A stretch of DNA of 64,000 nucleotides from an uncultured Gammaproteobacteria bacterium (GCA_964428655.1 CAYRYE010000001.1:376406-440405); one strand, 5' to 3'. Counted from the first letter of the stretch, positions 8,851 through 62,593 are shown. Numbers and translations are program-made. The notes: generated by a model from the letters alone, not told the origin.

Positions 8851-8884
8851 GTGAAGAGTGAATAACATGTACTGTTTCGGTAGT

Positions 8885-9136
8885 TTAGTAAAGTCCTCTA
8901 CGTACACGATGTACATAATATCCTATTCTTAAGACAGCTTTCTGGATTAGCCTTGGATTTACAAGATTGCTTGGAGTACGTATGCGGTGTTCTCCATCGT
9001 CACAGTCTATGTCGACAATCTGCAGAACTGATCCTTTAGAGACTTCAGTTACTCTGCCCCTAATTAATGGTGCTCTCCTGCCACATCCTTTACGAACGAA
9101 TACTTCGTCACCAGTTTGTACTACCCTTTCTCCCAT
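8885..9136 (-). CDS. Small DUF1918-like protein (83 aa)
   Basis: MGERVVQTGDEVFVRKGCGRRAPLIRGRVTEVSKGSVLQIVDIDCDDGEHRIRTP fits the DUF1918 pattern (VGD..V..G…G.V.EV…DDGHE…P). Local GC is about 43% versus about 36% in the flanks. The ORF-track start at 9172 is a TTG that lies in the promoter -35 element. Confidence 0.4.
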   Translation of the reverse strand: MGERVVQTGDEVFVRKGCGRRAPLIRGRVTEVSKGSVLQIVDIDCDDGEHRIRTPSNLVNPRLIQKAVLRIGYYVHRVRRGLY

Positions 9137-9143
9137 ATAAATA

Positions 9144-9172
9144 ATTATATTGGAAAAGATTGTTAAAATCAA
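9144..9172 (-). promoter_or_regulatory. Sigma70-type promoter TTGATT-17nt-TATAAT. The -10 element ends 7 nt before the ATG at 9136, so the transcript is leaderless.
   Basis: Read on the minus strand: ttgatt ttaacaatcttttccaa tataat tatttat ATG. Confidence 0.5.
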
Positions 9173-9213
9173 CTTTTTGTGTGTTAGTTGGCTGAGGTAG
9201 AACTTATGGTAAA

Positions 9214-11058: not shown

Positions 11059-11112
11059 TATTTTATTCTAACACGGAGTGTATAATAAGGTAGTTGGAAT
11101 TATCTTTACAGT

Positions 11113-27812: not shown

Positions 27813-27868
27813 GAAAAAATTACCCCTTGACAGGCTTTTTAAAATGCTGTTCTATTGAAATAGAGCTT

Positions 27869-36282: not shown

Positions 36283-37561
36283 AAAGCTTCTTAAGAATCA
36301 ATTAGTAAAAGGGAGCGCTGTTCTTTTTGTTGGCAGCACCATTGTTAACCTGGCTAATTATCTTTATCATCTCTTGATGGGCAGAATGCTGGGGCCGGTC
36401 GACTATGGCATTTTAGCCTCGCTAATTTCCCTAATTTATTTACTAACCATTCCCAATACCACCTTGATGTTGGTAGCAGTCAAATATGTTTCTTCTTTTT
36501 TCAGTAAAGGGAGATTGGGGGCAATATCCTCATTTTATTCCTGGTTGAACAAAAAATTGACAATAGTTATTTTTTTTGGTGTTCTATTTTTGGTGTTTTC
36601 GTCTTCACGGATTGCCCATTTCCTTCACTTGGATTCAGCTCTTTTGGTTTTCTTAGTTTCCCTCTTTGGTCTGATTAGTCTTTATGCCAGCGTTAATTTA
36701 TCTGTTTTACAAGGCTTTCTTCAGTTTGGTTTGATTTCTTTGCTAGGTGTAATTCAAGCAGCCGTAAAATTCTTTTTAGGTATTTTGCTTGTTTTTTTAG
36801 GAATGAGGGTTTTGGGCGCAGCACTGTCGATAATTACAGGAGGCTTGATTGTTCTGTTTCTTTCTTGGATTTTGGTTAATCGTTTTCTAAAAGATGGTAG
36901 GAAGAATGATGTTGAGATAAAAGAAAGAAGGATTTTAAGCTACGCTTTGCCTGTTTTTTTATCCACTTTATCTTTTACTTCTCTTTACACCACTGATTTG
37001 GTTTTAGCCAAACATTTTTTGTCAGCCCAAGACGCTGGTTTTTATGCCAGCTTGTCAATGCTGGGTAAAATAATATTTTTTGCCGCCAGCCCTTTGGTAA
37101 CAGTTATGTTTCCCGTAGTGGCTAATTATTTTGAAAAAGGCAAGAACTATATGAAAGTCTTTAATCTTAGCTTTCTTGTCACTTTGTTTCTTTCTTTAGG
37201 AATAACAGCTGTTTATCTTGCTTTTCCTAAATTAATGGTTAAAATGCTTTATGGAGAGAGCTTCCTGCCTGCGGCAAAATATTTGCCAATCTTCGCCCTC
37301 TTTTTAGCTTTTTACTCGCTTTCTTATCTTCTGGTTAATTTTTACCTTTCGATTAAAAAGACAAATATTGTTATCTTTCCTATTTTAACTGCCCTTATTC
37401 AGGTTTTTTTAATTTGTTTCTTTCATCAGAGTCTGGCTCAATTGGTTTGGGTTTCTGTTAGCGTTTTGGGCTTGTTGCTATTGAGCCTCTTATTGTATCA
37501 TTGGCTTAGTGGCGGCAAAAAAAAGAGAATCATTCCTCTCAGTAATAATTCCTGCCTATAA
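36275..37561 (+). CDS. Wzx-like oligosaccharide flippase (MOP family), second copy in the window
   Basis: 428 aa with about 12 TM helices. N-terminus …VLFVGSTIVNLANYLYHLLMGRMLGPVDYGILASLISLIYLL… is typical of PST/Wzx. Confidence 0.6.
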   Translation: MFKKLLKNQLVKGSAVLFVGSTIVNLANYLYHLLMGRMLGPVDYGILASLISLIYLLTIPNTTLMLVAVKYVSSFFSKGRLGAISSFYSWLNKKLTIVIFFGVLFLVFSSSRIAHFLHLDSALLVFLVSLFGLISLYASVNLSVLQGFLQFGLISLLGVIQAAVKFFLGILLVFLGMRVLGAALSIITGGLIVLFLSWILVNRFLKDGRKNDVEIKERRILSYALPVFLSTLSFTSLYTTDLVLAKHFLSAQDAGFYASLSMLGKIIFFAASPLVTVMFPVVANYFEKGKNYMKVFNLSFLVTLFLSLGITAVYLAFPKLMVKMLYGESFLPAAKYLPIFALFLAFYSLSYLLVNFYLSIKKTNIVIFPILTALIQVFLICFFHQSLAQLVWVSVSVLGLLLLSLLLYHWLSGGKKKRIIPLSNNSCL

Positions 37562-38314: not shown

Positions 38315-39304
38315 ATGGCCATCGAAGCCTCTATTATCATTCCCGTAAAAGAAATTAATGATTATATACGGGATGAGATAATTCCGGCTTTAAAAAGACA
38401 GACTTTTAAAAATTTTGAATTGATAATTATTCCTGATAGACATGGGGGCTTGGTCCGTTTTCCTTCATTTGTCAGAATTTTTCCTTCATGGCCAAAGATA
38501 GGTCCGGCTTTTAAAAAAGATTTAGGAGTAAAAAAGGCCAAAGGAGAAATTGTTGTCTTTCTTGATGATGATGCTTATCCGGAAAAAGATTGGTTAGAAA
38601 AAGCAATACCTTATTTTAAAAGAGATGAAGTGACGGCTGTTTGCGGTCCTGGGGCGACTCCAGCCAATGATCCTGTTTTGGCCAAAGTTTCCGGTTGGAT
38701 GTGGTCATCGCTTTTGGGCTCTGGTGGAGCCGGAACTTACCGCTGCTGGCCTGGCAAAAAGCGAGAGGTGGATGACTATCCAGCCTTTAATTTATTTGTT
38801 AGAAAAAAAGATTTTGAATCAGTGGGTGGGTTTGATTCCAAATTCTGGCCGGGCGAGGATACTAAATTGTGCCATGATCTAGTCTATAAATTGGGCAAGA
38901 AAATTATTTATGATCCTAAAATTTTGGTTTATCATCACCGAAGAAAAATATTTAAACCCCATCTTAAGCAAATCGGCCGCTATGGATTCCAACGGGGATA
39001 TTTTGTTAGAATTTTGCCCAAAACTTCTAAAAGAATTGGTTATTTTATGCCGACACTTTTTGCGTTAGGCTTAATAATCGGGCCTGTTTTTTATTCTATT
39101 TTCGAGTCAGAGATAATAATTAATTTTTATTTATTTTCACTATTTGTTTATTTTTCGTTATTATTTGGAACAACAATTTGGGTTTTTACTAAAAGCAAGA
39201 ATTTGTTAATAGCTTTGCTGGTAATGCCAACAATTTTTGCCAGCCATGTTTTCTATGGCATTATGTTTTTAAAGGGGTTGTTCAGCAGACTGGAGACTAT
39301 TTAA
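38315..39304 (+). CDS. GT2 glycosyltransferase with a C-terminal membrane-spanning region
   Basis: ASIIIPVKEINDY…FELIIIPDRHGG…VVFLDDDAYP GT-A core. The last roughly 90 aa are hydrophobic. Confidence 0.6.
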   Translation: MAIEASIIIPVKEINDYIRDEIIPALKRQTFKNFELIIIPDRHGGLVRFPSFVRIFPSWPKIGPAFKKDLGVKKAKGEIVVFLDDDAYPEKDWLEKAIPYFKRDEVTAVCGPGATPANDPVLAKVSGWMWSSLLGSGGAGTYRCWPGKKREVDDYPAFNLFVRKKDFESVGGFDSKFWPGEDTKLCHDLVYKLGKKIIYDPKILVYHHRRKIFKPHLKQIGRYGFQRGYFVRILPKTSKRIGYFMPTLFALGLIIGPVFYSIFESEIIINFYLFSLFVYFSLLFGTTIWVFTKSKNLLIALLVMPTIFASHVFYGIMFLKGLFSRLETI

Positions 39305-41017
39305 TAGTTGTTTTGCCTTTTCATTGGCGGGTTGCAGTTCAATAAACTTTTTTAGATTTTCTTCGGCAAGCTTGAAATTCTTTTGTTCAAGATAAATAGC
39401 GGCTAGGTTTTGGTAAGACTGCCAGATATTAGGATTAATCTCAATGGCTTTTTGGTAATTTTTAATTGCTTCGTTGATCTTGTTGGTTTGCCAATAAATA
39501 TTGGCTAAATTATGATAAGCATCGGCATAGCCTGGTTTTAGTTCAATCGCTTTTTTAAATTCTTCAATTGCTTTTTCAAAATTACCGTGACGGCCGTAAT
39601 AATCACCTAAATTATTATGATTTTGATGACTTGAGGGTGAAGTTTTGGCCGCCGCCAGCCAAAGATTATCCTGATTTTTCCAATCACGATTTCTGACAAT
39701 TGTTCTTGTCGTTAAGGCAACAAGAATTAGAGTAAAAATAATCAGAGGTATATTTCTAATCTTCTTTATATCGTTTAGTTTTTTAACTACTATGGCGATG
39801 ACCACAAAGATGCCAATTGAGCCGAGATAGACATACCGTTCAGCTACGAGCCAAGAGATTCCAAACGGAGTCATTGTTGGTAGGAGAGAAATGATAAAAA
39901 ATGACAGCCAAAAAAAGATATGACGATTTCGTTTAAAACTGTAGACAATTATTCCCAAGAAAGCAATTAGAACTCCTAATTTTATAAAATATTCTAATTG
40001 GCTAAAGACCATTTCTGAATGATAAAGAGTCAAATTTTTTGGCCAGAAGATAAGTTCAAGATAGGAAGTAATTGCGATTGGTACTTGGTGTAAAAGATTG
40101 GAAGTTTTGGGTTTTTGGTAAAAGTTTGTTTCCAACGAAGTAATCCTGGTTCCCATAGCTCCGGAGCTGAGAAAATAAAGTCCCCAAAAACTACTTATTC
40201 CTAGAAAAAGGAGAAGCTTTTTCCAATTGGTTTTTAAGTTTTCAAAACAGAGTTCGTAAACAAAGAGAATAATTGGAAAAATAATTGCTTTCTCAGAGAT
40301 AGTGAGAGCCAAGAAAAAACTGGTGAGAGAGAGGTAGATGTATCGGTTGTTTTTTAGGGTCAAGATGTAAGAAAGAATGGATAGCATTATGAAGAAACTA
40401 TACATACAGTGGCCTCCGCCAGAAATCCAAGTAATAGATTCAATGAGAATAGGGTGGACAGCGGCAAGAGAGGCGGCCATGATTGCTGTTATTTTGTCAA
40501 AAAGAAGATAAATAATGATGAAAACTAGACAAACGGTTGCCAGGTGGAAAAGAATATTGGGAAGTCGAAAGGCGATTGGTGATTTGCCAAAAACTTGGTT
40601 AATCAAAAAGTAAAACAGAGGTTGAAAAAATCTCAGTAGACGAAAAGGAGAGGAGGTAACATATGAAATATCATCTATGTTCTTGTTATTAAGAATGCCT
40701 TCTATATCATCAGAAACAAATTCGTTGTTAATGGAATTTGCATATGAAATAAAGACAAGAACGATTAGGACTATTATATAGAGATAATGTTCAATCATCC
40801 ATTGTTTGAAGCCAAATTTAGATAAATTTTTCCTTTTGTCTTCTTCTGTAGATTTTTGTTGTTTGATAAAGCGTTGATATTTTTTTTCTTTCCAAATTTT
40901 TTTCAAATAAGACTGAATTGTCTCGGGAGGAATATCTGAGTCTTTAGCGACTTGGCTTAAACTCATGATCTTAAGTTTTTTTCTTATCTCTTCTTTTTGT
41001 TTTTTTGTAAGATTCAT
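39269..41017 (-). CDS. Integral membrane GT-C-like protein fused to a C-terminal TPR-repeat domain
   Basis: 582 aa. The N-terminus is charged and HTH-like (…MSLSQVAKDSDIPPETIQSYLKK…). About 11 TM helices follow. The C-terminus has at least three TPR units (…AIEEFKKAIELKPGYADAYHNLANIYWQTNKINEAIKNYQKAIEINPNIWQSYQNLAAIYLEQKNF…). Confidence 0.55.
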   Translation of the reverse strand: MNLTKKQKEEIRKKLKIMSLSQVAKDSDIPPETIQSYLKKIWKEKKYQRFIKQQKSTEEDKRKNLSKFGFKQWMIEHYLYIIVLIVLVFISYANSINNEFVSDDIEGILNNKNIDDISYVTSSPFRLLRFFQPLFYFLINQVFGKSPIAFRLPNILFHLATVCLVFIIIYLLFDKITAIMAASLAAVHPILIESITWISGGGHCMYSFFIMLSILSYILTLKNNRYIYLSLTSFFLALTISEKAIIFPIILFVYELCFENLKTNWKKLLLFLGISSFWGLYFLSSGAMGTRITSLETNFYQKPKTSNLLHQVPIAITSYLELIFWPKNLTLYHSEMVFSQLEYFIKLGVLIAFLGIIVYSFKRNRHIFFWLSFFIISLLPTMTPFGISWLVAERYVYLGSIGIFVVIAIVVKKLNDIKKIRNIPLIIFTLILVALTTRTIVRNRDWKNQDNLWLAAAKTSPSSHQNHNNLGDYYGRHGNFEKAIEEFKKAIELKPGYADAYHNLANIYWQTNKINEAIKNYQKAIEINPNIWQSYQNLAAIYLEQKNFKLAEENLKKFIELQPANEKAKQLLNSLQSAEQPL

Positions 41018-50602: not shown

Positions 50603-51157
50603 ATGACCAAAAAAAAGAAAAATAAAAGTAGGCCGTTTATTTTGTTTATTACTGGAATCAGTGGTTCGGGAAAAACAACTGTTTTTGAGAAATTTTCGAA
50701 AGATTTAAGTTTAAAGGCTTCTTCGATTGAATTTCGAGAAATTGATGAAAAAAAAGTTCCCCCTGTGGGAAGAAGCCATTGGCGTCAATATCGAGTTGAG
50801 GAGCTTCTTTATCAGGCAATTAAAAACTTAAAGAAAGGAAAATCTACTGTTATTTGTGGTATTACTTTGCCTCAAGAAATTATTAATTCAAGATTGTATA
50901 AACCTTCTTTTAATATTCATTTTCTCTTACTCGACATTCCTATTTCCCTTTTTTCTAAAAGAGTGAAAGAGAGAATTAAAAAAACTAAAGAAGAGAAAAA
51001 TTGGGAAGAGTTAAAATATTCCACAAAAAAACTTTCTACTAGATTAAAAAATCAAGTGGTTAGTTATAAAAATGGTTTAGTGTTGGATGTAGGCAAAAAA
51101 AATGTTGATGAGATTTTCAAAGATGTTTTTTCTTTGATGAGAAAGTTACAGAAATAA
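50603..51157 (+). CDS. Small P-loop NTPase / nucleotide-kinase-like protein
   Basis: Walker A FITGISGSGKTT with a kinase-like size (184 aa). Confidence 0.5.
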   Translation: MTKKKKNKSRPFILFITGISGSGKTTVFEKFSKDLSLKASSIEFREIDEKKVPPVGRSHWRQYRVEELLYQAIKNLKKGKSTVICGITLPQEIINSRLYKPSFNIHFLLLDIPISLFSKRVKERIKKTKEEKNWEELKYSTKKLSTRLKNQVVSYKNGLVLDVGKKNVDEIFKDVFSLMRKLQK

Positions 51158-51176: not shown

Positions 51177-51947
51177 ATGAAACAAAATTACCGAGATTTG
51201 CTTTTCAACCTGGTTAAGCGCGAGATTGCTGGGAGGTATAAACAATCAATTCTGGGCTACTTCTGGGTGGTTTTAAACCCCTTTTTCCAGATGCTGGTAA
51301 TGACATTAGTCTTTTCAAAAATCATGCGAATTTCGATTCCTGGTGTGCCTTATTTTCTGTTTTTATATGTGGGTCTCTTGCCTTGGACTTTTTTTGTTAA
51401 TTCTGTTAATTCGGCAATGGGAAATCTGGTCGGCATGGGTTCTTTAATAAAAAAGGTTTATTTTCCCAGGGAGATTATTGTTTTGGCAGCTGTTTTAGCA
51501 AAAGTGGTAGATCTTATTTTGGCCTCTCTGATTTTTGTCTTGTTTATGATTATTTTTCGCCAATCAACTAATTTGGCTTTAGATTTAGCAGTTGTTCCTA
51601 TGATTTTTCTTATCCAGTTTATTTTTTCTTTCGGCATTGGCCTTTTTGTTTCTGCTTTAAACCTTTTTTATCGCGATGTTCAGTATTTGATGAGTTTAAT
51701 TTTAATGCTTTGGTTTTATTTAACGCCAGTGGTTTATCCAATTGAAATGGTCCCCGAGAAACTGCGGATTGTCTTTTCACTTAATCCTATGTCGGTTTTA
51801 ACCAATGCTTATCGACGGGTAATTCTAGGCGGTTCTTTGCCAAATTTAGCCCATTTGACAGTCGCCTTGTTAGTTTCGTTAATTATCTTGGTAATTGGCT
51901 GGAGAGTATTTAAAAAACTAGAAGGCCGCTTTGCAGATGTTGTCTAA
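51177..51947 (+). CDS. ABC-2 type transporter permease (Wzm/TagG-like polysaccharide exporter)
   Basis: 256 aa with 6 TM helices. The N-terminal …LVKREIAGRYKQSILGYFWVVLNP… ABC-2 signature precedes the Wzt-like ATPase. Confidence 0.7.
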   Translation: MKQNYRDLLFNLVKREIAGRYKQSILGYFWVVLNPFFQMLVMTLVFSKIMRISIPGVPYFLFLYVGLLPWTFFVNSVNSAMGNLVGMGSLIKKVYFPREIIVLAAVLAKVVDLILASLIFVLFMIIFRQSTNLALDLAVVPMIFLIQFIFSFGIGLFVSALNLFYRDVQYLMSLILMLWFYLTPVVYPIEMVPEKLRIVFSLNPMSVLTNAYRRVILGGSLPNLAHLTVALLVSLIILVIGWRVFKKLEGRFADVV

Positions 51948-53391
51948 AAAAATGAAAAATAACATTGCCATTAAATTTGATTCTGTTTCTAAACTCTATT
52001 ATCTCCAGTCCCATCGGACTTTAAAAGAGTTTCTGCCGGCATTTTTAAAAAAGAAAGCACCAAAGACTCTCCGACGAGTGGCCCGTCAGTTTTATGCCCT
52101 AAAAAACATTTCTTTTAAAATTAAAAAGGGCGAGACAGTCGGCATCATTGGTCCTAACGGAGCCGGCAAGTCAACTATTCTCAAATTGATCGCCGGCGTC
52201 ACCAAGCCAACCAGAGGAAAAATAACTGTCAACGGCCAGGTTTCACCTTTAATCGAATTAGGAGCCGGTTTTCATCCTGATTTAACCGGTCGGGAAAACA
52301 TTTATCTTAACGGTTCCATTTTGGGTCTGACTAAAAAGAAAATTGACAAAAAATTCAAAGAAATCGTTGATTTTGCCGAACTCTGGGACTTTATTGACCA
52401 ACCAGTCAAACACTATTCTTCAGGTATGTATGCTCGTTTAGGCTTTTCAATTGCCATTAGTGTTGAGCCGGAAATTCTTTTAATTGATGAAATTTTAGCT
52501 GTTGGCGATGCTGCTTTTCAAGAAAAATGTTTTGCCAAGATGGAGGAATTTAAAAAGAGTGGAGTGACGATTATTTATGTTTCCCATTCCCTTCCCAGTG
52601 TGGCCAAATTTTGTAATCATTGTCTCTATTTAGATAAATCCAAGTTGATTTCTGAAGGTAATCCCCAAGAAATAATAGAAAATTATTTAAGAACTGAAAA
52701 AAAAGTCAGCAGTCAACAGTATCACCAAACCCCAGAAAAAAGTTCAATTGAGGCGATTGATCCAAGCTGGTACAAAAATTTTGTTGGCGGCATGTGGGAG
52801 GAAATAGGTAAGTTACAGTTTGATTTTTTAATTAAACAAGGCTTAAAACCTGAAAATAAGTTATTAGATCTTGGTTGCGGCAGCTTGAGAGGGGGAATTC
52901 ATTTTATTAAATATCTTAAAAAAGGAAATTATTTTGGGATTGACGTTAGAAAAGATATTTTAATTGCCGCTGAAAAAGAAATTAAAATTAATAAACTATC
53001 AAACAAGAATCCTCAATTATTTCAAATAACTGATAATAAATATGATGATCATTTAAAAGAAAAATTTGATTTTATTTTGGCTGTTTCCGTTTTTACCCAT
53101 TTAAATTTAAATGAAGTTGCTATTTGTTTATATGAAGCAAAAAAAATTCTTAAAAAGAAAGGCAATTTTTTTGCCACTTATTTTGAATCAGAAAAATGTG
53201 TTTTTGATACTAATGGTTTTCTTCAAGTAGAGAAGCCGGATAAGGTTATTACCCTTTTTCACAAGGATCCTTACCATTATTGCTTTTCTCTAATAAAAGA
53301 AGTGGCTAAATTAATTGGATTAAAGGCAAAAGTTATCAAGAATTGGAAACATCCTCGAAATCAAAAAATGTTAGTTTTTAGACATCAGTAA
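51931..53391 (+). CDS. ABC transporter ATP-binding protein (Wzt/TagH-like) fused to a C-terminal class I SAM-methyltransferase-like domain
   Basis: Walker A GPNGAGKST, signature YSSGMYARLG, Walker B LLIDEIL, H-loop YVSHS. Then a ~230-aa extension with LLDLGCGSLRGG (MTase motif I), YFGIDV, and FDFILAVSVFTH. Confidence 0.7.
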   Translation: MQMLSKKMKNNIAIKFDSVSKLYYLQSHRTLKEFLPAFLKKKAPKTLRRVARQFYALKNISFKIKKGETVGIIGPNGAGKSTILKLIAGVTKPTRGKITVNGQVSPLIELGAGFHPDLTGRENIYLNGSILGLTKKKIDKKFKEIVDFAELWDFIDQPVKHYSSGMYARLGFSIAISVEPEILLIDEILAVGDAAFQEKCFAKMEEFKKSGVTIIYVSHSLPSVAKFCNHCLYLDKSKLISEGNPQEIIENYLRTEKKVSSQQYHQTPEKSSIEAIDPSWYKNFVGGMWEEIGKLQFDFLIKQGLKPENKLLDLGCGSLRGGIHFIKYLKKGNYFGIDVRKDILIAAEKEIKINKLSNKNPQLFQITDNKYDDHLKEKFDFILAVSVFTHLNLNEVAICLYEAKKILKKKGNFFATYFESEKCVFDTNGFLQVEKPDKVITLFHKDPYHYCFSLIKEVAKLIGLKAKVIKNWKHPRNQKMLVFRHQ

Positions 53392-53393
53392 AT

Positions 53394-56300
53394 ATGGCTA
53401 AGGGTAAAAGAAAGACCATTTGTATTTTAGGAATGCATCGGGCAGGCACTTCCCTTTTAACTAGAATTTTAAATATTTCTGGAATGGCGATTGGAGAAAA
53501 AGAGGAAATAATTGGTGTCAGGAAGGGTAATCCCACCGGTCATTGGGAAAATAAAGCCTTTGTTGAGATTAATAATCAGATTATTTCAATATTTAAGAAA
53601 AATGCTGATTGGCATGAAATTCCTGATTATCCCACTAATTGGTTAAAAAATCCCAAGGTAGTATCACTGGAAAGAAAAGCAAAAGAGCTAGTGAAAAAAA
53701 TGAATGCAAGATATAAAATTTGGGGGTGGAAAGACCCCCGAACTTGTGTTACTTTGCCTTTTTGGCAAAAGATAATTGGGGACGAATTGGTCTATGTGGT
53801 TATTTTTAGGAATCCTCTTGATGTCGCCAAATCATTAAAAAAAGTTCACAATCTTCCCCATGATAAAAGCATTTTGCTTTGGGCAAGATATTATCTTACT
53901 GTTTTAGATAGTCTTAGAGGCAAGAAGTTTTCTTTTATTCATTCTGAAAAATTATTATCAAATTGGGAAAAAGAAATTAAAAAAATATTGAAACATATAA
54001 ATTCTTCTTATCTCAAAATTAATGATCAGAAAAGAGAAGAGGTTAACAATTTTATCAGGCCTAGCATTTGGCATTTTAGTACCAAGACTAAAAATAGTTT
54101 TTTTGGCTTGGCAGATAATTTGCGATTGGCCTTGCTTGATTACTTATATCTTTCTACTAATAAAGTTAAAACAATTTTAAAAAAGGATCTTACTAATTTG
54201 GGCCATCAGTTAGCCAATAAAACCAACCAGGCAAATGCCCTTGTTGGAGAATTAACGAAAAAAGATGAACAATTGATAGTTAAAGATAACCAATTAAGTG
54301 ACTTTTCTAAACAATTAAGAGATACTACTGAGGAGTTGGAAGTGACTAAAAATGAACTTGTCGAGGCTGAGGAAAAGTTAGGAAAAACAGGTAAAGAAAT
54401 ATATGACGCTATAATTAAGCAGGAACAAAAAATAAAACAGCTTCGGTTAAAAGCAAGAGAGATCAATAAATCTCTTAAAAAGAAAAAGATGGTTATCAAA
54501 GAAAAAAACAAAAAAGTGGCTGATCTAAGTCTCCACTCTCAAAATCTGGGGAAAATTCTTGCCAATATTGTTTCGGCAAAAACTTTTAAGGCCTGGCAAA
54601 CATACGTGAAGATTAGACGAAAACCGACGCTTTTGATTGAAGCTGGGAAAACTTTATTAAAAAAAGGTCCAGGAGGTTTAAAGCAAAGGTTGACAAATGT
54701 TCAACAAAAGGAAGAAAGAATAGCCGCTCTTAATCAACAATATCATGTTTGGTTGAGAAAAAATACTCCCACAAAAAAGGAATTAAGAGGTCAAAAAAGA
54801 AAACAAAAAAAATTTGAATATAGGCCCAAAATCAGCATTATTACTCCAGTTTACAACACTGATAAAAAGTGGCTGCGAGCCTGTATTGAATCGGTCTTAG
54901 TTCAAACATACGACAATTGGGAGTTATGCATAGCTGACGACGCCTCAACAAAGCCCTATATTAAAAAAATCTTGAAAGAATATGAAAAGAAAGACAAGAG
55001 AATAAATGTTGTTTATCGTCGAAGAAATGGCCATATTTCTCGAGCCTCAAATTCAGCTCTGAGACAAGCAGTGGGAAAGTTTATCGCCCTTTTAGATCAT
55101 GATGATAAGCTAGTGCCTCATGCCCTGTATAGAGTGGTTGAATTTTTGAATAAAAAAAGAAAGGCTGATTTTGTTTACTCTGATGAGGACAAATTAGATT
55201 TAAATGGCAACCGGGTTAAACCATTTTTTAAGCCAGACTGGTCACCTGATATGTTTTTATCAGCCAATTATTTGTGTCATTTAAGTGTAATTAGAAAAAA
55301 ATTAGTTGATAAAGTTGGTGGTTTTAAACCAGGCTATGAGGGTTCTCAGGATTATGATTTGTTTTTAAGAATTACTGAAAAGACAGACAAGATTTATCAC
55401 ATCCCTGATGTTCTTTATTCTTGGAGAGAGGCGTCTGGATCTACGGCGGCAGTTTATGAAGTCAAGGGTTATGCTGATGCGGCCGCAGCTAAAGCCTTAA
55501 AAAGTAGTATTAAAAGAAAAAAATTAAAAGCAGAAGTGGAACAAGGTTTGATTCCCGGAACATTTAGAGTTAAATACAAGATTAAAAAGAAACCTTTGGT
55601 TAGTATTATTATTCCTACCAAAGACATTGTTAATTATCTTAAAAGGTGTGTTGAATCTATTTTGAAAAAAACAGATTATGATAATTATGAAATTATTATT
55701 GTTGATACTGGAAGCAAAGAAAAGAAAACCTTTAGGTATTATGAGAAATTAAAAAAAAATCCAAGGATTAAGTTTTTGCAATGGGATAAACCTTTTAATT
55801 TTGCTTCAGTTAATAATTTTGCTGTTAAGAATACCCAAGGGAAATATGTTCTTCTTCTTAATAATGATATAGAAGTCGTCTCTTATGATTGGATAAAGTC
55901 AATGCTTGAGCATGCCCAGAGAGCTGAGGTGGGAGCGGTAGGGGCGAAATTATTATACCCTGATGGAAAAATTCAACATGCCGGGATAATTTTAGGGATT
56001 CGTGGCGGACCAATTAAGAAGGGGATAGCTGGTCATGCCCAAAAGATGTTTATAGATGAACCTTCGGGATTACCCCTATGGAACTCAAAAGATATGATAA
56101 GGAATTTTTCAGCAGTAACAGCCGCCTGTCTTATGATTGAAAGAAGTAAATATTTAGAAGTCAAAGGGATGAATGAAAAACTAGAAATTGCCTTTAATGA
56201 TGTTGATTTTTGCCTTAAACTGCAAAAAAAGGGGTATCTCAATGTTTATACCCCTTATGGCGGACTTTATCATTACGAGTCAGTTTCTGTTGGTCGTCCA

Positions 56301-56441
56301 AGTCAAGGGACAAGAGATATTGCCGAATTCCAAAAAGAGATTAACATAATGCACCGAAAATGGGGGCACCTTTTACAAAATGATCCTTACTATAATTCAA
56401 ACCTGACTTTAGACAGGGAAGATTTCAGTTTGGGAGTATGA
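53394..56441 (+). CDS. Multidomain glycan assembly protein: N-terminal sulfotransferase-like domain, ~200-aa coiled coil, then two tandem GT2 domains
   Basis: 5'-PSB-like ICILGMHRAGTS and 3'-PB-like VIFRNPLDVAKS. Heptad-rich K/E/Q segment about aa 270-470. GT2 domain 1 has ISIITPVYNTDKKWL…CIADDAST…LDHDD. GT2 domain 2 has VSIIIPTKDIVNYL…IIIVDTGS…LNNDIEV. Confidence 0.7.
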   Translation: MAKGKRKTICILGMHRAGTSLLTRILNISGMAIGEKEEIIGVRKGNPTGHWENKAFVEINNQIISIFKKNADWHEIPDYPTNWLKNPKVVSLERKAKELVKKMNARYKIWGWKDPRTCVTLPFWQKIIGDELVYVVIFRNPLDVAKSLKKVHNLPHDKSILLWARYYLTVLDSLRGKKFSFIHSEKLLSNWEKEIKKILKHINSSYLKINDQKREEVNNFIRPSIWHFSTKTKNSFFGLADNLRLALLDYLYLSTNKVKTILKKDLTNLGHQLANKTNQANALVGELTKKDEQLIVKDNQLSDFSKQLRDTTEELEVTKNELVEAEEKLGKTGKEIYDAIIKQEQKIKQLRLKAREINKSLKKKKMVIKEKNKKVADLSLHSQNLGKILANIVSAKTFKAWQTYVKIRRKPTLLIEAGKTLLKKGPGGLKQRLTNVQQKEERIAALNQQYHVWLRKNTPTKKELRGQKRKQKKFEYRPKISIITPVYNTDKKWLRACIESVLVQTYDNWELCIADDASTKPYIKKILKEYEKKDKRINVVYRRRNGHISRASNSALRQAVGKFIALLDHDDKLVPHALYRVVEFLNKKRKADFVYSDEDKLDLNGNRVKPFFKPDWSPDMFLSANYLCHLSVIRKKLVDKVGGFKPGYEGSQDYDLFLRITEKTDKIYHIPDVLYSWREASGSTAAVYEVKGYADAAAAKALKSSIKRKKLKAEVEQGLIPGTFRVKYKIKKKPLVSIIIPTKDIVNYLKRCVESILKKTDYDNYEIIIVDTGSKEKKTFRYYEKLKKNPRIKFLQWDKPFNFASVNNFAVKNTQGKYVLLLNNDIEVVSYDWIKSMLEHAQRAEVGAVGAKLLYPDGKIQHAGIILGIRGGPIKKGIAGHAQKMFIDEPSGLPLWNSKDMIRNFSAVTAACLMIERSKYLEVKGMNEKLEIAFNDVDFCLKLQKKGYLNVYTPYGGLYHYESVSVGRPSQGTRDIAEFQKEINIMHRKWGHLLQNDPYYNSNLTLDREDFSLGV

Positions 56442-57496
56442 AAAAACTACAAGAATGTTTTAAAAAACTCAAAAATATAAGATTTTATAAATTTATCCTA
56501 TTGCTTTGTTTGTTTATCTTTTGGCTTGGTTTTTTTATTTGGCATTTTGGTGATATAAAAATTACCCAATGGGGGGACATCCCGTTAACTACTAGTAACT
56601 TTTTGGAATCATACTATTGGACTAAAAAGATAATTTTTTGGGATAAAACTTTGGAGCTGATCGAAGAGAAGGTCAATGAAGAAAATTTGAAAAAATTGTT
56701 GCTTGAAGCCTATGTTGAGGCAATTCCAGTTAATCAGTGGTGGTCACCTCTAAGAGGAGATAAGGTGAAAGCTTTAAGGGATTTATTTGATTTTTATCGG
56801 GAAAATGAGGACTGTTTAGTTTTGGAAAAAGCCGCCTTTGAGTTTATTAAAATAAATTCTGACCATCCCGATGGTTATTTCAATTTAGGACTTGCTCTAG
56901 AAAAACAAGGTAAACTTAACCAAGCAGCGGAAAATTACAGAAGGACGCTTTCTTTAGAAAAAACTCATCTGGCGGCAATTAAACAGCTCTCTTCCATTCT
57001 TATTGAGAAGGATAGGTATTATGAAGCAAAGGAGGTTATTTCAGCTTATGAAACCAGAGTAGATTTAGTTGATCGGACTTTTTGCTTCTATTCAGATGAT
57101 GATAATTTCGCCGAGGGAGGAAAAAGTTGCGGCAGTAGATTTTTAGATGGTAAATATGTAATACGGATTGATAATAAAAATGTGAACATTAAAATGATAA
57201 GAATTGACCCCCCTCAAGGAAAGTTGTTTTTGCAAAAAATAGAGTTTGTTTCTCCTGGCGGCAAAGTGGAAAAAACAATAGATAGTTTTAGGGGATGGAT
57301 TATGTCAAAAGACTTAAAAAAAGTGGATGATCATAATTTCTATAGTATAGGTAGTGACCCTTATCTCTACATTAAATTATCGACTCATCTCGATTTTTCC
57401 CAATTCGACCAAGTTTTAATTGAGGCATCAATTGATCCGGATACTGACCCAGAAATAGATGTTTTATTGAAAGAGATAGAAGATAAAATTTCCTAG
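56438..57496 (+). CDS. N-terminally membrane-anchored TPR-repeat protein, unknown function
   Basis: TM helix FYKFILLLCLFIFWLGFFIW. TPR-like …HPDGYFNLGLALEKQGKLNQAAENYRRTLSLEK…. Confidence 0.5.
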   Translation: MKKLQECFKKLKNIRFYKFILLLCLFIFWLGFFIWHFGDIKITQWGDIPLTTSNFLESYYWTKKIIFWDKTLELIEEKVNEENLKKLLLEAYVEAIPVNQWWSPLRGDKVKALRDLFDFYRENEDCLVLEKAAFEFIKINSDHPDGYFNLGLALEKQGKLNQAAENYRRTLSLEKTHLAAIKQLSSILIEKDRYYEAKEVISAYETRVDLVDRTFCFYSDDDNFAEGGKSCGSRFLDGKYVIRIDNKNVNIKMIRIDPPQGKLFLQKIEFVSPGGKVEKTIDSFRGWIMSKDLKKVDDHNFYSIGSDPYLYIKLSTHLDFSQFDQVLIEASIDPDTDPEIDVLLKEIEDKIS

Positions 57497-57501
57497 TTAA
57501 A

Positions 57502-60500
57502 ATGAAAAATATTGAAACAAAGAAAAAAATAATTCAGATTTTTTTAGGTTCCTGGATCGCTATTTCAATTATTTTTATGGCCTTGTCCTTATATGCCTTT
57601 GGCCAAAGTGTGGCAGAATATAGACATTTTGCCACTTTCAATGACTGGAAATCATTTCAAACAGCTAATGCTAAAAATTTTTTCAAGAATAACTTTTATT
57701 ATTTTAAGGGCAGGTTAAAAAAAGTTTTTATTAGTAATAATTCTATTCGGGAAAGATTGAAAGAGAATGGTTTCGATTATATTAATTTAGAAACCCTTCC
57801 AGCAGACTTACACTCCCTGGATTCTGACTTACCAGCTAGTGGTAGAAGCTATATCGAGGGGGAAATTAATTTAGAAAAAGGAAAAAAGGAACCGGTTCTG
57901 CTTAAGTATCGCGGTGACAATTTTTATCATTGGGGCTTTCCTAAAAAATCTTTCAAAATAAAATTTGATGACGATAGGATTATTAATCTTATTAACCCAA
58001 AAGAAATTGATTTTATTGCTGATAAAATTGCCTTTAATTTAGCTGAGGAAATGGGTCTTTATTTTTCTGGAGTAAAGTTTACTGGTTTATTCATAAACAA
58101 TGACTTTAAAGGGATATTTCTTGAGACAGAGGAGCCAAATACTGAGTATATCCGAAATCACTCACTTCCTTTTAGGGCCGTTTTTCAAGGAGAGAGCATT
58201 GGTCCGGACAGACAGGGTCTAGGTTTATTTCAAGACTCGAATAAATGGGATCTTGATGGTGGCTATTTGTCTAAGAAAAGCCTAGAGCCCTTTCTAAGGG
58301 CTCTGAATGAGGGAAATTTCAAAGGAATTTATCAAAATATTAACTTTGACTACTGGGTTAATTTCTATACTTTTGTCTCACTTATTCAAAATAGCCATTT
58401 TGATGATGCTCACAACTGGTTTTGGGGCGTTCATGGAGATCGTTTTTACCCTATTGTTTGGGATCCTGTCGGTTGGGTTATGAGAACTGGCTCTGGTGAA
58501 GGGGTAGAGGAAATGAAATCCATGATTTCTCAAACTTTTCGGAAAAATGTCTATTTCTCTAGTAGTTTTTCTCATCAACTCTGGCAACGAGTTAATGACT
58601 CCGGATTATTGGAAAGAATGTTTCAGGAAATGGATGAAATCAGTCTTTCTTTAGAAAATGTTTTGGACTACGATTTTTATAAAGGGGGCATATTTGGTAA
58701 TTCCAAGGGGGCTAGGTCACCTCAGACTACGGAAGAGATCCTAGAGGAAATTGCTGGCTTAAGGTCAAAAATTCAAGACAGGTTTGATTTTCTTAAGAAT
58801 GCTCTGTCTAAGGCTTCTGCTAGTTATTATATTGATGATAGGGATAATTGGTTGTATCTCCAGTACTCTGGTATTGCTCCCGCCGAAATAAAACAGATTT
58901 ATAGGGGGGTTCCCTTTGTCAATTATTCAACAGTTGAAGTTTTTAATAATTTGCAATATTTCCCCCTCCCCTTAGATTTAAACCAAATTGTTTCCGGTCG
59001 AGTTTCTGCTGGCGGCCCCTTTCCTTATGCAAAAGTTTGTCCAATGAGTTACCGAGTTAAGGTTAATTCTCGTCTCGGAGGTTTAATTGAGCCAAAATTA
59101 GTTAATTCTTTGAGCAAGGAAGAAATTGATCTTAAAGAGGTTAATGAATTTTCTCCTACTGACTGCATGATGGATTTTACCAGTCCAGGTGAGACTAAAT
59201 TTGGAAAACAAACAATTAATAATCAAAAAAGGGAAAATAATAGTCTTGAAATAACATTTTCTACCATTAATCCGGCTGATTATTTTGATTTTGACAGAAA
59301 TGATGAGGATGAAACTAAAATGACTTTGGGGGCTGAAAAATATGATAAAGTTTTCTTTAAAAAGGAAGAATTTAGTAAAAATATAGAACTAGAATTTAAA
59401 AAGCAGGAATATTTAGGAAGAGAGAATTGGTATTTGTCGCCTATTGATTTTAATAGCGGTTTTCTTTTCTATAGCCAGAGTTTGGCCCGGTCTCTGGGTT
59501 TTCCAATAAAGAAGCAGGAATTACTAAGTGTTTTTGGTAACGAATTCTATATTGGTGAATACTTCTTAAAAGAAGCAGCTGAGAATAAGGCCTTTTTTGA
59601 GGTTAATGGCTTAACTTTTGACACCGATATTTACAAGCTTGAAGGGGAAGATAGTCTCAAGAGGAAAAATTGGCAGAAGATTTCCACTGACCCGCGAAAA
59701 GAAGTTGATGATGATGAAACTTTAAAGGGTCTTTTAGACTCTTTAAATGATCCAAATGCCCTATTTAAAATTATTGATTGGCAAAATTTTGCTAATTTTT
59801 ATTCTTATCTAATTTTAGCCAGAGATGAGTTTCCTCAATATTTGCTTTATTTTGATAATACCCTAGGGAGGTTTAAGTTTATTCCTGATAAGGAAAAGTT
59901 TTATAGAGCAAATCAGGGATTTGATATTTATGACCCTTTGGTTCAGGAAATTTTAAAAAAAGACTTTGTTTGGGAAATTTTAGCCGAAAAAATTGGGAGG
60001 GATATTGATGGCATTTTATCTAAGATAATCCAGCAATATCAAGGGACAGGGAAACAATATCAAGAGAAAATCGAAAACAGTTTTGTTTATTGGAGTGATT
60101 CAGATGAAGGGCAAGGGCGAGAGTATTTTACTAATCAAGAGAAAATATTAAGAAATAATTTCTCAATCCTTAATGGGAAGGCGCAAGAATTAGTTGAAAG
60201 AAAAGATGAATCACTGATCCAGGAAATGATAGAAAGTTCTCAAAAAGAATTCTGGCAAAAAGATTCAATCTTTACCCTAGGGGATGAAGATAAAGTTATT
60301 TTGATCAAGGAGGGAAACCATTCTATTAAAAAGGATGTTATTATTCCTCCTGGACTAACTGTTGTTATTGAGCCGGGGGCAGTATTAGAAATGGGTTCAA
60401 AAGCCTCTATTGTTTCTCTTTCCCCAATAATAGCTGAGGGAACAGAGGATAAGCCAATAAAAGTGATTCCCTTAAAGGAAAAAAAGCCCTGGGGAGTAAT

Positions 60501-61152
60501 TGCTGTTTTAGGAACAGGTAGTCGAGAATCTCAGTTTGAGCAGATGATTTTTCAAGGAGGATCAGAAACATTTCTGAATAATGTCTATTTATCAGGCCAA
60601 CTTTCTATTTATCATGCTGACGTCTTGATTAGGGATTGCCAATTTTTAGAAGCAAAGGCAGATGATTCTTTAAATTTAAAATATGGCAAATTTTTAATAG
60701 AGAGTAGCTTTTTTGGAGAAAACAATGCTGATGCAATTGATCTTGATTTTGTCACCGGAGAGGTCATTAATAGTACTTTCGAAAAAAATGGTAACGATTC
60801 TATTGATGTTTCTGGGGCGAGAGTTTTGATCAAAAATAATACCATTAGCAACTCAGGAGACAAGTGCATTAGCATTGGAGAGGAGAGTGAAACAGAGGTT
60901 GTTGCTAATGTTTTAGATAGTTGTAGCATTGGTATTGAGATAAAGGATAGTTCAGTCGCCCATATCGAGGATAACCAAATTATTAATAATAATATTGGTA
61001 TTAATGCCTATCAAAAGAAAGTTTTCTTTGAGGGAGGAAGAGGAGAGGTCTACACTACCATTTTTGATAACAATCGAGAAGATATTGATTACAAAAATAC
61101 TTCTACTGGTGTTAAATTTGATACTGATAATTCAGAGATAGTTGTCCATTAA
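57502..61152 (+). CDS. CotH-family (atypical protein kinase) domain protein with an N-terminal TM anchor and a C-terminal right-handed parallel beta-helix repeat domain
   Basis: …VLLKYRGDNFYHWGFPKKSFKIKFDDD… is the hallmark CotH motif region. The C-terminus has NosD/pectate-lyase-like repeats (…NNTISNSGDKCISIGEES…IEDNQIINNNIGINAY…). Confidence 0.65.
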   Translation: MKNIETKKKIIQIFLGSWIAISIIFMALSLYAFGQSVAEYRHFATFNDWKSFQTANAKNFFKNNFYYFKGRLKKVFISNNSIRERLKENGFDYINLETLPADLHSLDSDLPASGRSYIEGEINLEKGKKEPVLLKYRGDNFYHWGFPKKSFKIKFDDDRIINLINPKEIDFIADKIAFNLAEEMGLYFSGVKFTGLFINNDFKGIFLETEEPNTEYIRNHSLPFRAVFQGESIGPDRQGLGLFQDSNKWDLDGGYLSKKSLEPFLRALNEGNFKGIYQNINFDYWVNFYTFVSLIQNSHFDDAHNWFWGVHGDRFYPIVWDPVGWVMRTGSGEGVEEMKSMISQTFRKNVYFSSSFSHQLWQRVNDSGLLERMFQEMDEISLSLENVLDYDFYKGGIFGNSKGARSPQTTEEILEEIAGLRSKIQDRFDFLKNALSKASASYYIDDRDNWLYLQYSGIAPAEIKQIYRGVPFVNYSTVEVFNNLQYFPLPLDLNQIVSGRVSAGGPFPYAKVCPMSYRVKVNSRLGGLIEPKLVNSLSKEEIDLKEVNEFSPTDCMMDFTSPGETKFGKQTINNQKRENNSLEITFSTINPADYFDFDRNDEDETKMTLGAEKYDKVFFKKEEFSKNIELEFKKQEYLGRENWYLSPIDFNSGFLFYSQSLARSLGFPIKKQELLSVFGNEFYIGEYFLKEAAENKAFFEVNGLTFDTDIYKLEGEDSLKRKNWQKISTDPRKEVDDDETLKGLLDSLNDPNALFKIIDWQNFANFYSYLILARDEFPQYLLYFDNTLGRFKFIPDKEKFYRANQGFDIYDPLVQEILKKDFVWEILAEKIGRDIDGILSKIIQQYQGTGKQYQEKIENSFVYWSDSDEGQGREYFTNQEKILRNNFSILNGKAQELVERKDESLIQEMIESSQKEFWQKDSIFTLGDEDKVILIKEGNHSIKKDVIIPPGLTVVIEPGAVLEMGSKASIVSLSPIIAEGTEDKPIKVIPLKEKKPWGVIAVLGTGSRESQFEQMIFQGGSETFLNNVYLSGQLSIYHADVLIRDCQFLEAKADDSLNLKYGKFLIESSFFGENNADAIDLDFVTGEVINSTFEKNGNDSIDVSGARVLIKNNTISNSGDKCISIGEESETEVVANVLDSCSIGIEIKDSSVAHIEDNQIINNNIGINAYQKKVFFEGGRGEVYTTIFDNNREDIDYKNTSTGVKFDTDNSEIVVH

Positions 61153-61153
61153 A

Positions 61154-61903
61154 ATGAAACGATCAAAAACAAAATTAGGATTAAATTTTCGCCGCTTTGA
61201 GTTTAAATACTTAATGCCAGCTAAATTGGCTGATATTATTGTTGCCTCTATTGTTCACTATACCAATATTGATCCCTATATTGAGAAAGAAGACTTTTAT
61301 TATGTTAATAGTATATATCTGGATAGCAATGACTTCTTTTTTTATCAAGAAAAGTTAAGCGGTTTGAAGAATAGAAAAAAGTATCGACTGAGATTTTACG
61401 GAGAAGAGATTTATCCTCCCAAGCAACCTTTATTTTTTGAGATTAAAAGGAGGGTGGATGCCGTAATAATAAAAAACAGGACGGTAGTAAGGTTAAAACA
61501 TTTGAGGGCAATAAATCTTTCTAATTGGCAGGATGTTGCTCAAGAAAATCAGAAATTTTTCACTGAGTTCTATCATGACTATCGTTGGTTTGGTCTCAAG
61601 CCAGGTCTTTTTGTTAGGTATAAAAGAAAGCCCTTTTTTTCAAAATTTGACCGCAATTTTAGGGTTACTTTTGACTTCGATCTGCAGGCGGCAAAAGTTA
61701 ATCAATTAACCCCTGGGGTAGTTCATTATAGGAATATTTTAAACAAAGTTGCTGTTATGGAGGTTAAATTCAATGGTATTATCCCCTCTTGGTTTGCTGA
61801 GGTCATTAGGACTAATAACTTGAAACGAGCCCCCTTTTCTAAATATTGTAATTCTTTGAATATCATATATAATTTTGATGACGAGTTACCAATTATTTAT
61901 TAG
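61154..61903 (+). CDS. VTC-domain (polyphosphate-polymerase-domain-like, CYTH-related) protein
   Basis: …NFRRFEFKYLMP…, about 250 aa. It has the typical genomic association with CotH and DUF4956. The ORF track start is 61142. Confidence 0.5.
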   Translation: MKRSKTKLGLNFRRFEFKYLMPAKLADIIVASIVHYTNIDPYIEKEDFYYVNSIYLDSNDFFFYQEKLSGLKNRKKYRLRFYGEEIYPPKQPLFFEIKRRVDAVIIKNRTVVRLKHLRAINLSNWQDVAQENQKFFTEFYHDYRWFGLKPGLFVRYKRKPFFSKFDRNFRVTFDFDLQAAKVNQLTPGVVHYRNILNKVAVMEVKFNGIIPSWFAEVIRTNNLKRAPFSKYCNSLNIIYNFDDELPIIY

Positions 61904-61915
61904 TTTTACTTTTCT

Positions 61916-62593
61916 ATGAATAATACTAACGCTTTAATTAAGACTTTTAGTAGTCCTCTTGTTACTATCTATTATTTAGGCATTTCTATTGCTGTGGCCT
62001 TTATAATTGCCGTTGTTTATCGGAAAACTCACAGGAGTGTTTCTTATTCGCAATCCTTTGCCAATAGTTTAGTAATGCTTCTTCCAATGGTGGCTTTGAT
62101 AATTAATATTGTTAATACCAATGTTGCTCGGGCAATTGGGGTTTTTGGAGCCTTTTCAGTAACTCGCTTTAGGACGCCGATCAAAGACACTCGGGATATG
62201 GTATATATTTTTTGGTCACTTGCAGTTGGCTTGGCCATTGGAGCGGGTGAAGTAGGAATAGCAGTTACAGCTACCATAGTTTTATCTTTGCTAGCCTATT
62301 TGCTTTATTTAACTAATTTTGGTGCCACTAGTAATTATGACTACACCTTGATAACCAATTTAGATACCCGCCAAGGCAAACTTGAAGATTTAAAGAGGGT
62401 GATTGATAAATACTCGAAAGCAAAAGAAATTATTAATATTCAGTCAGATAAGAATGGGGAAAACCTAGAACTTAGTTCTAACTTGAAGCTAAGGAAGGGT
62501 ATTAAAATAGATGAATTAGTTGGTGAAATCAATAGATTAAAAGGAGTTGGTGAAGTAAATGCGAGTCCTTCACAAGGGGGAATTGAGTTTTAA
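61916..62593 (+). CDS. DUF4956-family membrane protein
   Basis: …IGVFGAFSVTRFRTPIKDTRDMVYIFWSLAVGLAIGAGE… is characteristic of DUF4956. The N-terminal half has 3-4 TM helices. Confidence 0.55.
   Translation: MNNTNALIKTFSSPLVTIYYLGISIAVAFIIAVVYRKTHRSVSYSQSFANSLVMLLPMVALIINIVNTNVARAIGVFGAFSVTRFRTPIKDTRDMVYIFWSLAVGLAIGAGEVGIAVTATIVLSLLAYLLYLTNFGATSNYDYTLITNLDTRQGKLEDLKRVIDKYSKAKEIINIQSDKNGENLELSSNLKLRKGIKIDELVGEINRLKGVGEVNASPSQGGIEF

Follow-up and report, generated by a model that had tools for sequence, protein, structure and literature searches.

What would a sulfotransferase do on the same chain as a glycan polymerase? The question is raised by a gene in a 64,000-nucleotide stretch of DNA (hereafter the window; GCA_964428655.1, CAYRYE010000001.1:376406-440405) that is labeled as coming from an uncultured Gammaproteobacteria bacterium. 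Specifically, positions 53394 to 56441 encode a single polypeptide that combines a sulfotransferase head, a coiled coil, and two modules of glycosyltransferase (GT) family 2, and the gene lies directly behind wzm and wzt, which specify an ATP-binding cassette (ABC) exporter. In ABC-transporter-dependent pathways, the established means of length control is a capping enzyme that, mounted on a coiled-coil ruler, terminates the chain. We propose that the protein is a single-chain polymerase-terminator with a sulfate-capping head, dedicated to an ABC-transporter-dependent surface glycan. We place the probability of this reading at roughly 0.55.

One chain with a sulfotransferase head, a coiled coil, and two GT2 modules

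The open reading frame begins with ATG and encodes 1015 amino acids (aa). From the N to the C terminus, its parts are arranged as follows, with the modifying enzyme and the GT modules at opposite ends of the coil.

53394..56441, plus strand: whole open reading frame (1015 aa; Pfam and AlphaFold2 [AF2]), with the sulfotransferase head, the coil, and two GT2 modules
53409..54155, plus strand: sulfotransferase head (aa 6-254) of the type that uses 3'-phosphoadenosine 5'-phosphosulfate (PAPS), with GMHRAGTS at 13-20, E52, WGWKDPR at 110-116, and RNPLDVAKS at 139-147
54195..54569, plus strand: coiled-coil spacer (aa 268-392), made of two helices of 60 residues each that are interrupted at GKTGK (aa 330-334)
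54570..54806, plus strand: helical linker (aa 393-471), with four shorter helices, a basic stretch, and, toward its end, the conserved Y450..W453 motif ahead of GT2 module a
54825..55493, plus strand: GT2 module a (GT2a; aa 478-700), with ADDAS at 514-518, LDHDD at 567-571, and SDEDK at 596-600
55590..56438, plus strand: GT2 module b (GT2b; aa 733-1015), with VDTGS at 770-774 and LNNDIE at 822-827

The fusion is not an assembly chimera or artifact, because the identical 1015-aa protein is encoded in four metagenome assemblies made independently, on contigs of up to 548 kb (JGI 3300008517, Ga0111034_1103162). The gene starts 2 nt past the wzt stop (53391), and the ATG of the following gene overlaps its stop; thus, it belongs to a tightly packed, co-directional gene row. 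An earlier reading of the sequence alone (the original prediction) had placed a sulfotransferase-like domain, a coiled coil of ~200 residues, and two GT2 domains on one chain. All of these parts are present, but the coil is shorter than proposed, at ~125 residues.

The sulfotransferase assignment, now borne out, depends on the company that the head keeps. A single-sequence phmmer search of the head against the PDB returns nothing meaningful, and a homolog profile is required. Used against the PDB, the head profile matches SULT1A3 (1.3e-7), SULT7A1, and the tyrosylprotein sulfotransferase TPST1 (6e-5). Among the aligned head homologs, 12 of 12 match Sulfotransfer_3 (PF13469) at E <= 0.01, the best at 1.1e-12, and 8 of them match PF00685 as well. 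Both predicted motifs are found, the 5'-phosphosulfate-binding (5'-PSB) motif GMHRAGTS at aa 13-20 and the 3'-phosphate-binding (3'-PB) motif RNPLDVAKS at aa 139-147 (R139-x7-S147). In the profile alignment, HR(S/A)GTS pairs with PRSGTT of the TPST1 5'-phosphosulfate loop, RNPLDVAKS pairs with RNPKDVAVS, the 3'-phosphate-binding motif of SULT1A3, and an invariant WKDPR pairs with KDP in the catalytic-lysine region of TPST1. At the level of profile and structure methods, the sulfotransferase fold of the head is confirmed.

Conservation centers on the same residues. Specifically, H15, R16, G18, T19, S20, E52, K113, R139, and S147 are invariant in the full-length homologs, and R16, G18, S20, E52, K113, R139, and S147 are still invariant in 34 distant, long, head-bearing proteins. 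By analogy with the catalytic Glu and Lys of the TPSTs, E52 and K113 are candidate catalytic residues. Compared with P0002, the closest full-length homolog, the head is the best-conserved part of the protein (79% identity versus 55% overall), which argues for selection on the head. The head family is large, with 13,203 cluster representatives at E <= 1e-10, and its members sit N-terminally on GT2, GT4, WsaF, WbsX, and TagF-like modules in long proteins, and on RgpF-type proteins. From the TPSTs and the bacterial PF13469 enzymes, to which its identity is 13-16%, this head differs in that it is fused to a coil and GT modules, and in that its predicted acceptor is the end of a glycan, whereas theirs is a peptide tyrosine.

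The two GT2 domains that had been proposed are likewise real: PF00535 matches in two stretches (E 1.5e-51, 175 bits against a cut-off of 23.3; the best stretch is aa 481-640), with acidic DxD-type motifs. The second stretch lies in GT2b, which also matches Glyco_tranf_2_5 and NCBIfam models (aa 731-856). Among homologs, D568 and D597-K600 are invariant in GT2a, and D825, H862, and E962 are invariant in GT2b. The best structural matches of the whole AF2 model are tandem GT-A polymerases, namely the chondroitin polymerase K4CP (1.5e-20) and the heparosan synthase PmHS2 (1.7e-20), and GT2a matches the GT-A domain of K4CP by phmmer at 2.5e-27. Like the present protein, K4CP and PmHS2 carry two GT-A modules on one chain, and theirs alternate two transfers. 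Unlike it, they possess neither a terminator head nor a coil, and they make capsule glycosaminoglycans. By its genomic surroundings, the GT2 pair is typical of ABC-dependent loci; among 59 loci that span 12 kb or more, its relatives have wzm plus wzt within the flanks in 35.

Between head and polymerase, the AF2 full-length model (pLDDT, the predicted local distance difference test score, 80.6) contains two helices, aa 268-327 and 333-392, split at GKTGK. The ~200-residue coiled coil of the original prediction is thus a heptad-periodic helix of ~125 residues. A single heptad register spans aa 268-392, in which 64% of a/d positions are hydrophobic versus 22% elsewhere, a value reached in 0 of 2000 shuffles, and each half alone is significant in the shuffle test (p 0.0005 and p 0.003). 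The region is free of proline and rich in Lys, Leu, and Glu. Among homologs, the coil is the segment least conserved in sequence, and its length varies: by a crude heptad detector, the heptad-like stretch at this position runs from 60 to ~310 residues in head-bearing relatives, and P0002 has a 24-residue deletion within the coil relative to this protein. Such variability in length is the behavior expected of a spacer. Beyond the coil, the linker helices of the AF2 model (398-408, 411-424, 426-457, and 461-471) pack toward GT2a, with pLDDT above 90 near it; Y450 and W453 are invariant among homologs, and the linker is ~70% identical to that of P0003, a relative with a methyltransferase head. 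An amphipathic membrane helix in aa 393-430 was considered and rejected, as hydrophobic-moment values there are only moderate and lie below those of helices inside the globular domains.

Exporter genes, homologous loci, and the likely host

The two genes immediately upstream encode the exporter.

51177..51947, plus strand: wzm, ABC-2 type permease (Pfam ABC2_membrane, 4.2e-18)
51931..53391, plus strand: wzt, ABC ATPase with a C-terminal S-adenosylmethionine (SAM)-methyltransferase-like domain (ABC_tran, 3.4e-24; Methyltransf_31, 4.1e-12)

The best NCBIfam matches of Wzm are galactan Wzm/RfbD and KpsM, both under the curated cut-offs. The JGI call starts wzt at 51937. The nucleotide-binding domain (NBD) of Wzt occupies ~aa 1-265 and has TagH/Wzt-type NCBIfam matches, and the methyltransferase-like domain (nt 52786-53391) comprises the C-terminal ~200 residues. 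Among the best 120 Wzt homologs, a methyltransferase domain occurs only in the protein's own cluster; P0141 has a GNAT acetyltransferase instead.

Full-length, co-linear homologs of the polymerase-terminator with 35-55% identity are present in metagenomes (P0002, P0010-12, P0016, P0017, and P0019). Species-representative genomes also contain full-length homologs: four cyanobacterial genomes and one metagenome-assembled genome (MAG) each of Rudaea and Pseudomonas. Ten homolog loci with enough flank were surveyed for wzm/wzt, for the cap-binding module Wzt_C (PF14524) on Wzt, and for a kinase of adenosine 5'-phosphosulfate (APS).

L005: wzm/wzt upstream (wzm cut by the contig end); no Wzt_C; no APS kinase
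L006: wzm/wzt upstream; Wzt_C; APS kinase (2e-61), adjoining the homolog
L007: wzm/wzt upstream; Wzt_C; no APS kinase
L008: wzm/wzt upstream; Wzt_C; no APS kinase
L019: wzm/wzt upstream; no Wzt_C; no APS kinase
L042: wzm/wzt upstream; Wzt_C; no APS kinase
L049: wzm/wzt upstream (wzm cut by the contig end); Wzt_C; no APS kinase
L060: wzm/wzt upstream; no Wzt_C; APS kinase (5e-64)
L017: no wzm/wzt within 8 kb; no APS kinase
L023: no wzm/wzt within 8 kb; no APS kinase

The expected association with an ABC exporter therefore recurs: as in the window, wzm/wzt lie immediately upstream in 8 of the 10 loci. Wzt_C is present in five (L006, L007, L008, L042, and L049) and an APS kinase in two (L006 and L060). 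Beside the Wzt of L007, which bears Wzt_C, no cap-forming candidate other than the sulfotransferase head is evident. More distant head-bearing families (P0041 and P0082) have no adjoining wzm/wzt and are left out of the context evidence. L093 (451-13808) is a sulfotransferase-rich locus of a different kind. It contains a 1492-aa protein that joins ABC_membrane, ABC_tran, and GT2; after it come a GT2 gene, P0082 (828 aa, a sulfotransferase protein whose coil is short), a protein of the GT4 type, and a sulfotransferase-GT2 protein of 894 aa.

The head is exchangeable. At a syntenic locus of the candidate phyla radiation (CPR), P0003 is 67% identical to this protein from aa 301 to the C terminus but carries an unrelated methyltransferase head. 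Methyltransferase heads also occur on other close relatives of the GT2 pair (P0004, P0005, P0014, and P0020), some of them archaeal. Separate proteins carry the parts in Laspinema, Phormidium, and Oscillatoria, namely a sulfotransferase of 355 aa, a GT2, and a GT2 pair. Specifically, L042 of Laspinema olomoucense D3b (7968-12448; also L049 and L051) reads wzm, wzt with Wzt_C, 355-aa sulfotransferase, 461-aa GT2, and 637-aa GT2 pair. Next come a second sulfotransferase of the Sulfotransfer_1 type (12641-13387, 9e-22), a methyltransferase, and a GT4. The split Laspinema system resembles, in a culturable organism, the division of labor between WbdD and WbdA.

Who is the host? For both the Wzt NBD and the GT2 pair, the nearest named relatives belong to the Microgenomates group and to other CPR lineages, and by these relationships the host is probably a CPR/Patescibacteria organism. 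CPR bacteria are not known to have lipopolysaccharide (LPS), and this host probably has none. The product is therefore better termed a surface glycan than an O-polysaccharide, and the latter label, used in the original prediction, is likely the wrong term. Among GT2-pair relatives in the genome collection, the closest (L013, CAZGPK010000001.1; 62% identity; P0005, with a Methyltransf_24 head) is also labeled "uncultured Gammaproteobacteria," and the next closest all belong to CPR groups (Dojkabacteria, Saccharibacteria, and Microgenomates). The label of L013 may reflect mis-binning or horizontal transfer.

A proposed sulfate cap and its alternatives

The architecture has precedents. The original prediction pointed to WbbB and WbdD, and the parallel is apt. 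A closer precedent, which had not been named, is ORF6 of Klebsiella pneumoniae O7, in which one chain begins with a methyltransferase-kinase, continues through a central coil, and closes with two GT2 modules (Whitfield laboratory, JBC 2024, PMC11231755). ORF6 has the same order of parts, begins with a non-glycosyl modifying enzyme, and is likewise encoded with wzm/wzt; the likeness is one of architecture. It differs in its head, a methyltransferase-kinase rather than a PAPS-type sulfotransferase, and the predicted cap is sulfate here and methyl-phosphate there. By this analogy, we read ORF6 as the closest characterized protein and the present one as a new head variant of a known polymerase-terminator class. 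ORF6 homologs have been reported in a methanogen (PMC11231755). WbbB of Klebsiella/Raoultella O12 (GT99 Kdo-transferase, coil, GT102, and GT103) similarly joins a terminator, a coil, and two polymerizing GT modules on one chain, with the terminator distal to the coil. Its terminator, by contrast, is a glycosyltransferase that adds beta-Kdo, and its polymerase modules come from other GT families. WbdD of E. coli O9a/K. pneumoniae O3, a kinase-methyltransferase, likewise serves an ABC-transporter-dependent pathway as a non-glycosyl capping enzyme and is carried at the distal end of its coil. Unlike the present protein, it has no GT modules, recruits the WbdA polymerase, and uses different chemistry. 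Ruler function has been demonstrated for WbdD and WbbB, and the terminator caps shown experimentally are methyl, methyl-phosphate, and Kdo (PMC11231755 and work cited there). In architecture, the protein belongs with the coiled-coil polymerase-terminators; one hallmark of the class, a carbohydrate-binding module (CBM) on Wzt, is missing.

By analogy with WbbB, WbdD, and O7 ORF6, we infer the following mechanism. The two C-terminal GT2 (GT-A) modules would alternately add sugars to a lipid-linked chain at the cytoplasmic face of the membrane. The ~125-residue coil would hold the PAPS-dependent sulfotransferase away from the GT2 pair, by up to ~18 nm (125 x 0.148 nm) as a continuous coil, or by roughly half as much should its two helices fold back. 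Once long enough to reach the head, the non-reducing end would become sulfated, and the sulfate would stop further elongation. The finished chain would then be exported by the Wzm/Wzt pump encoded just upstream. The notion is that the polymerase activity, the use of PAPS, a sulfation that is terminal rather than internal, the consequent termination, and the ruler function would all reside in one chain.

Several observations weigh against this reading. Regarding the head, its score with Sulfotransfer_3 (PF13469) lies below the Pfam gathering cut-off of 27 bits (20.7 bits, E 5.6e-4, with the full-length sequence; 24.9 bits with the head taken alone), and the 5'-PSB loop serine at position 17, nearly invariant elsewhere, is alanine here. 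APS kinase queries taken from L006 and L060 match nothing within the window. Regarding the coil, the AF2 model is of a monomer and confidence in the coil is low (pLDDT 33-70), as is expected when an oligomeric coil is modeled as a monomer. At E <= 1e-3, no PDB chain of WbbB or WbdD shows sequence similarity to the protein; the relation is one of design. Regarding export, a Pfam scan finds no Wzt_C on the Wzt of this locus, so the coupling of export to termination known from the prototypes is not evident here. Finally, the two homolog loci that have no wzm/wzt within 8 kb (L017 and L023) are both cyanobacterial.

These points feed three rival explanations. The head could be a tethered decorator that sulfates internal residues or every repeat during synthesis, with a coil that only oligomerizes or scaffolds. 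Cyanobacteria are known for chain-sulfated polysaccharides, sulfotransferase genes occur in their ABC-type clusters (PMC8205485), and the loci of cyanobacterial relatives hold extra stand-alone sulfotransferases, such as that at 12641-13387 of L042; a Wzt devoid of a cap-reading module would also suit a decorator. We nonetheless consider this explanation unlikely. In every characterized coiled-coil protein of the pathway, the coil-distal enzyme is the terminator (PMC11231755), and a long spacer would hinder access to newly added residues. Moreover, methyltransferase heads swap onto the same scaffold (P0003), and the head is paired with Wzt_C in five homolog loci. Alternatively, the coil may be no ruler at all: length would be set by the coupling of polymerization to export, as in CBM-less systems such as that of K. 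pneumoniae O2a, and the head would add a terminal or adaptor modification that has no part in length control. The missing Wzt_C fits such an arrangement, and in the AF2 model the GKTGK break divides the coil into two helices of equal length (60 residues), which could fold back as a hairpin. This possibility strikes us as distinctly unlikely, given that the coil ranges from 60 to ~310 residues among relatives while the flanking domains stay conserved, and that the architecture matches those of WbdD and WbbB, the demonstrated rulers (PMC11231755).

Could the head be silent, a structural or ligand-binding remnant in a cell that makes no PAPS? CPR genomes are metabolically reduced, the window contains no APS kinase or other sulfate-activation gene, and the sub-threshold Pfam score and the Ser17Ala change would suit a remnant. 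We regard a silent head as very unlikely. Save for Ser17, the PAPS-contacting and candidate catalytic residues are all kept, the 79% identity of the head to its nearest homolog, the highest of any part of the protein, argues for selection on function, and the 64-kb window is a small part of a contig that spans 548 kb or more.

The sulfate-capping polymerase-terminator that we favor can be extended, more tentatively, to include Wzt. The methyltransferase-like domain of Wzt is homologous to the N-terminal half of a fusion with APS kinase in L006 (30% identity over 195 aa, E 2e-23). This link to APS kinase, at a second sulfotransferase-polymerase locus, suggests that the domain may be a dedicated partner. 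Under this extension, the protein would be the first sulfate-based terminator, whose head on a coil ruler caps and sizes a CPR surface glycan, and the methyltransferase-like domain would replace the cap reader, perhaps as a second capping step or as a reader of cap or cofactor that links sulfation to export. We find this version possible but doubtful. Members of the same methyltransferase-like subfamily lie immediately upstream of the sulfotransferase-polymerase gene in L005 (930-1610, a separate gene) and in L006 (5959-7206, the APS kinase fusion), and the subfamily is absent from sulfotransferase loci other than these two and the window.

In the searchable literature, neither a sulfotransferase acting as a chain terminator, nor a sulfotransferase-coil-GT fusion, nor a sulfate cap is described, although an earlier bioinformatic mention may exist. 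The closest published cases are the sulfotransferase genes of cyanobacterial ABC-type clusters (PMC8205485) and one from Aeromonas salmonicida, in which a stand-alone ORF with a sulfotransferase domain lies beside wzt and a WbbB homolog, and the known O-antigen is devoid of sulfate (PMC4483657). If the proposal holds, a sulfate cap would constitute a new, strongly anionic terminator chemistry, and the Wzt_C modules of the homolog loci that bear them would recognize a sulfated terminus. A sulfotransferase-headed variant is expected in concept, new in chemistry, and testable. Since the head family is large and rides on many polymerase scaffolds, the principle would apply widely; cyanobacteria, which make sulfated polysaccharides that attract applied interest, would be included. 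The otherwise uncharacterized cell surface of CPR bacteria would gain a concrete, testable prediction, and the question would arise of where PAPS comes from in a reduced CPR genome.

Neighboring genes and the rest of the window

The gene row continues on both sides of the exporter and polymerase-terminator genes.

50603..51157, plus strand: P-loop NTPase/kinase-like gene (184 aa), directly upstream of wzm (AAA_18, 4e-5; APS_kinase, 4.5e-3 over aa 11-41)
56438..57496, plus strand: gene for a tetratricopeptide repeat (TPR) protein with a hydrophobic N-terminal segment (TPR_1, 8.5e-7); its ATG overlaps the polymerase gene stop

The 184-aa P-loop gene is kept in other assemblies, and its PDB matches are weak. 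As a local APS kinase it is rejected: the similarity is at the level of the P-loop, and the APS kinase queries pass it by. The downstream TPR protein is a possible partner, although it is uncertain whether it belongs to the system; the idea of a conserved partner was rejected, as no homolog occupies that position beside P0002. Beyond it, a trio of genes at 57502-62593 is kept in all four assemblies. One product, of 1216 aa, has a CotH kinase-like domain and, at its C terminus, a right-handed beta-helix (NosD/Beta_helix); the others are a VTC-domain protein and a membrane protein with DUF4956.

Guanine-plus-cytosine (GC) content is 33-38% around the polymerase-terminator gene. Searches of the window reveal no nucleotide-sugar pathway genes and no second sulfotransferase, and tRNA and Rfam scans of it are empty; the homolog locus L007 has rmlABCD-type genes. 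As a whole, the window is a glycan-assembly island, with at least 12 GT2 and 3 GT4 genes in 1-50600 and Polysacc_synt flippase-like genes at 277-1731 and 36275-37561. Seven PMT_2-type GT-C paralogs (12336-17371, 22156-25354, 33641-34837, and 39269-41017, the last fused to TPR repeats) are accompanied by a GT87-like gene. Methyltransferases, of the FkbM type and of other types, are also encoded, as are two radical-SAM enzymes, one SPASM and one B12-binding. Finally, 27827-32443 encodes a 1538-aa protein of CarboxypepD_reg/transthyretin-like repeats, at a raised GC content (0.43-0.44 versus ~0.35), and a similar protein is syntenic in L010, the locus of the methyltransferase-headed relative.

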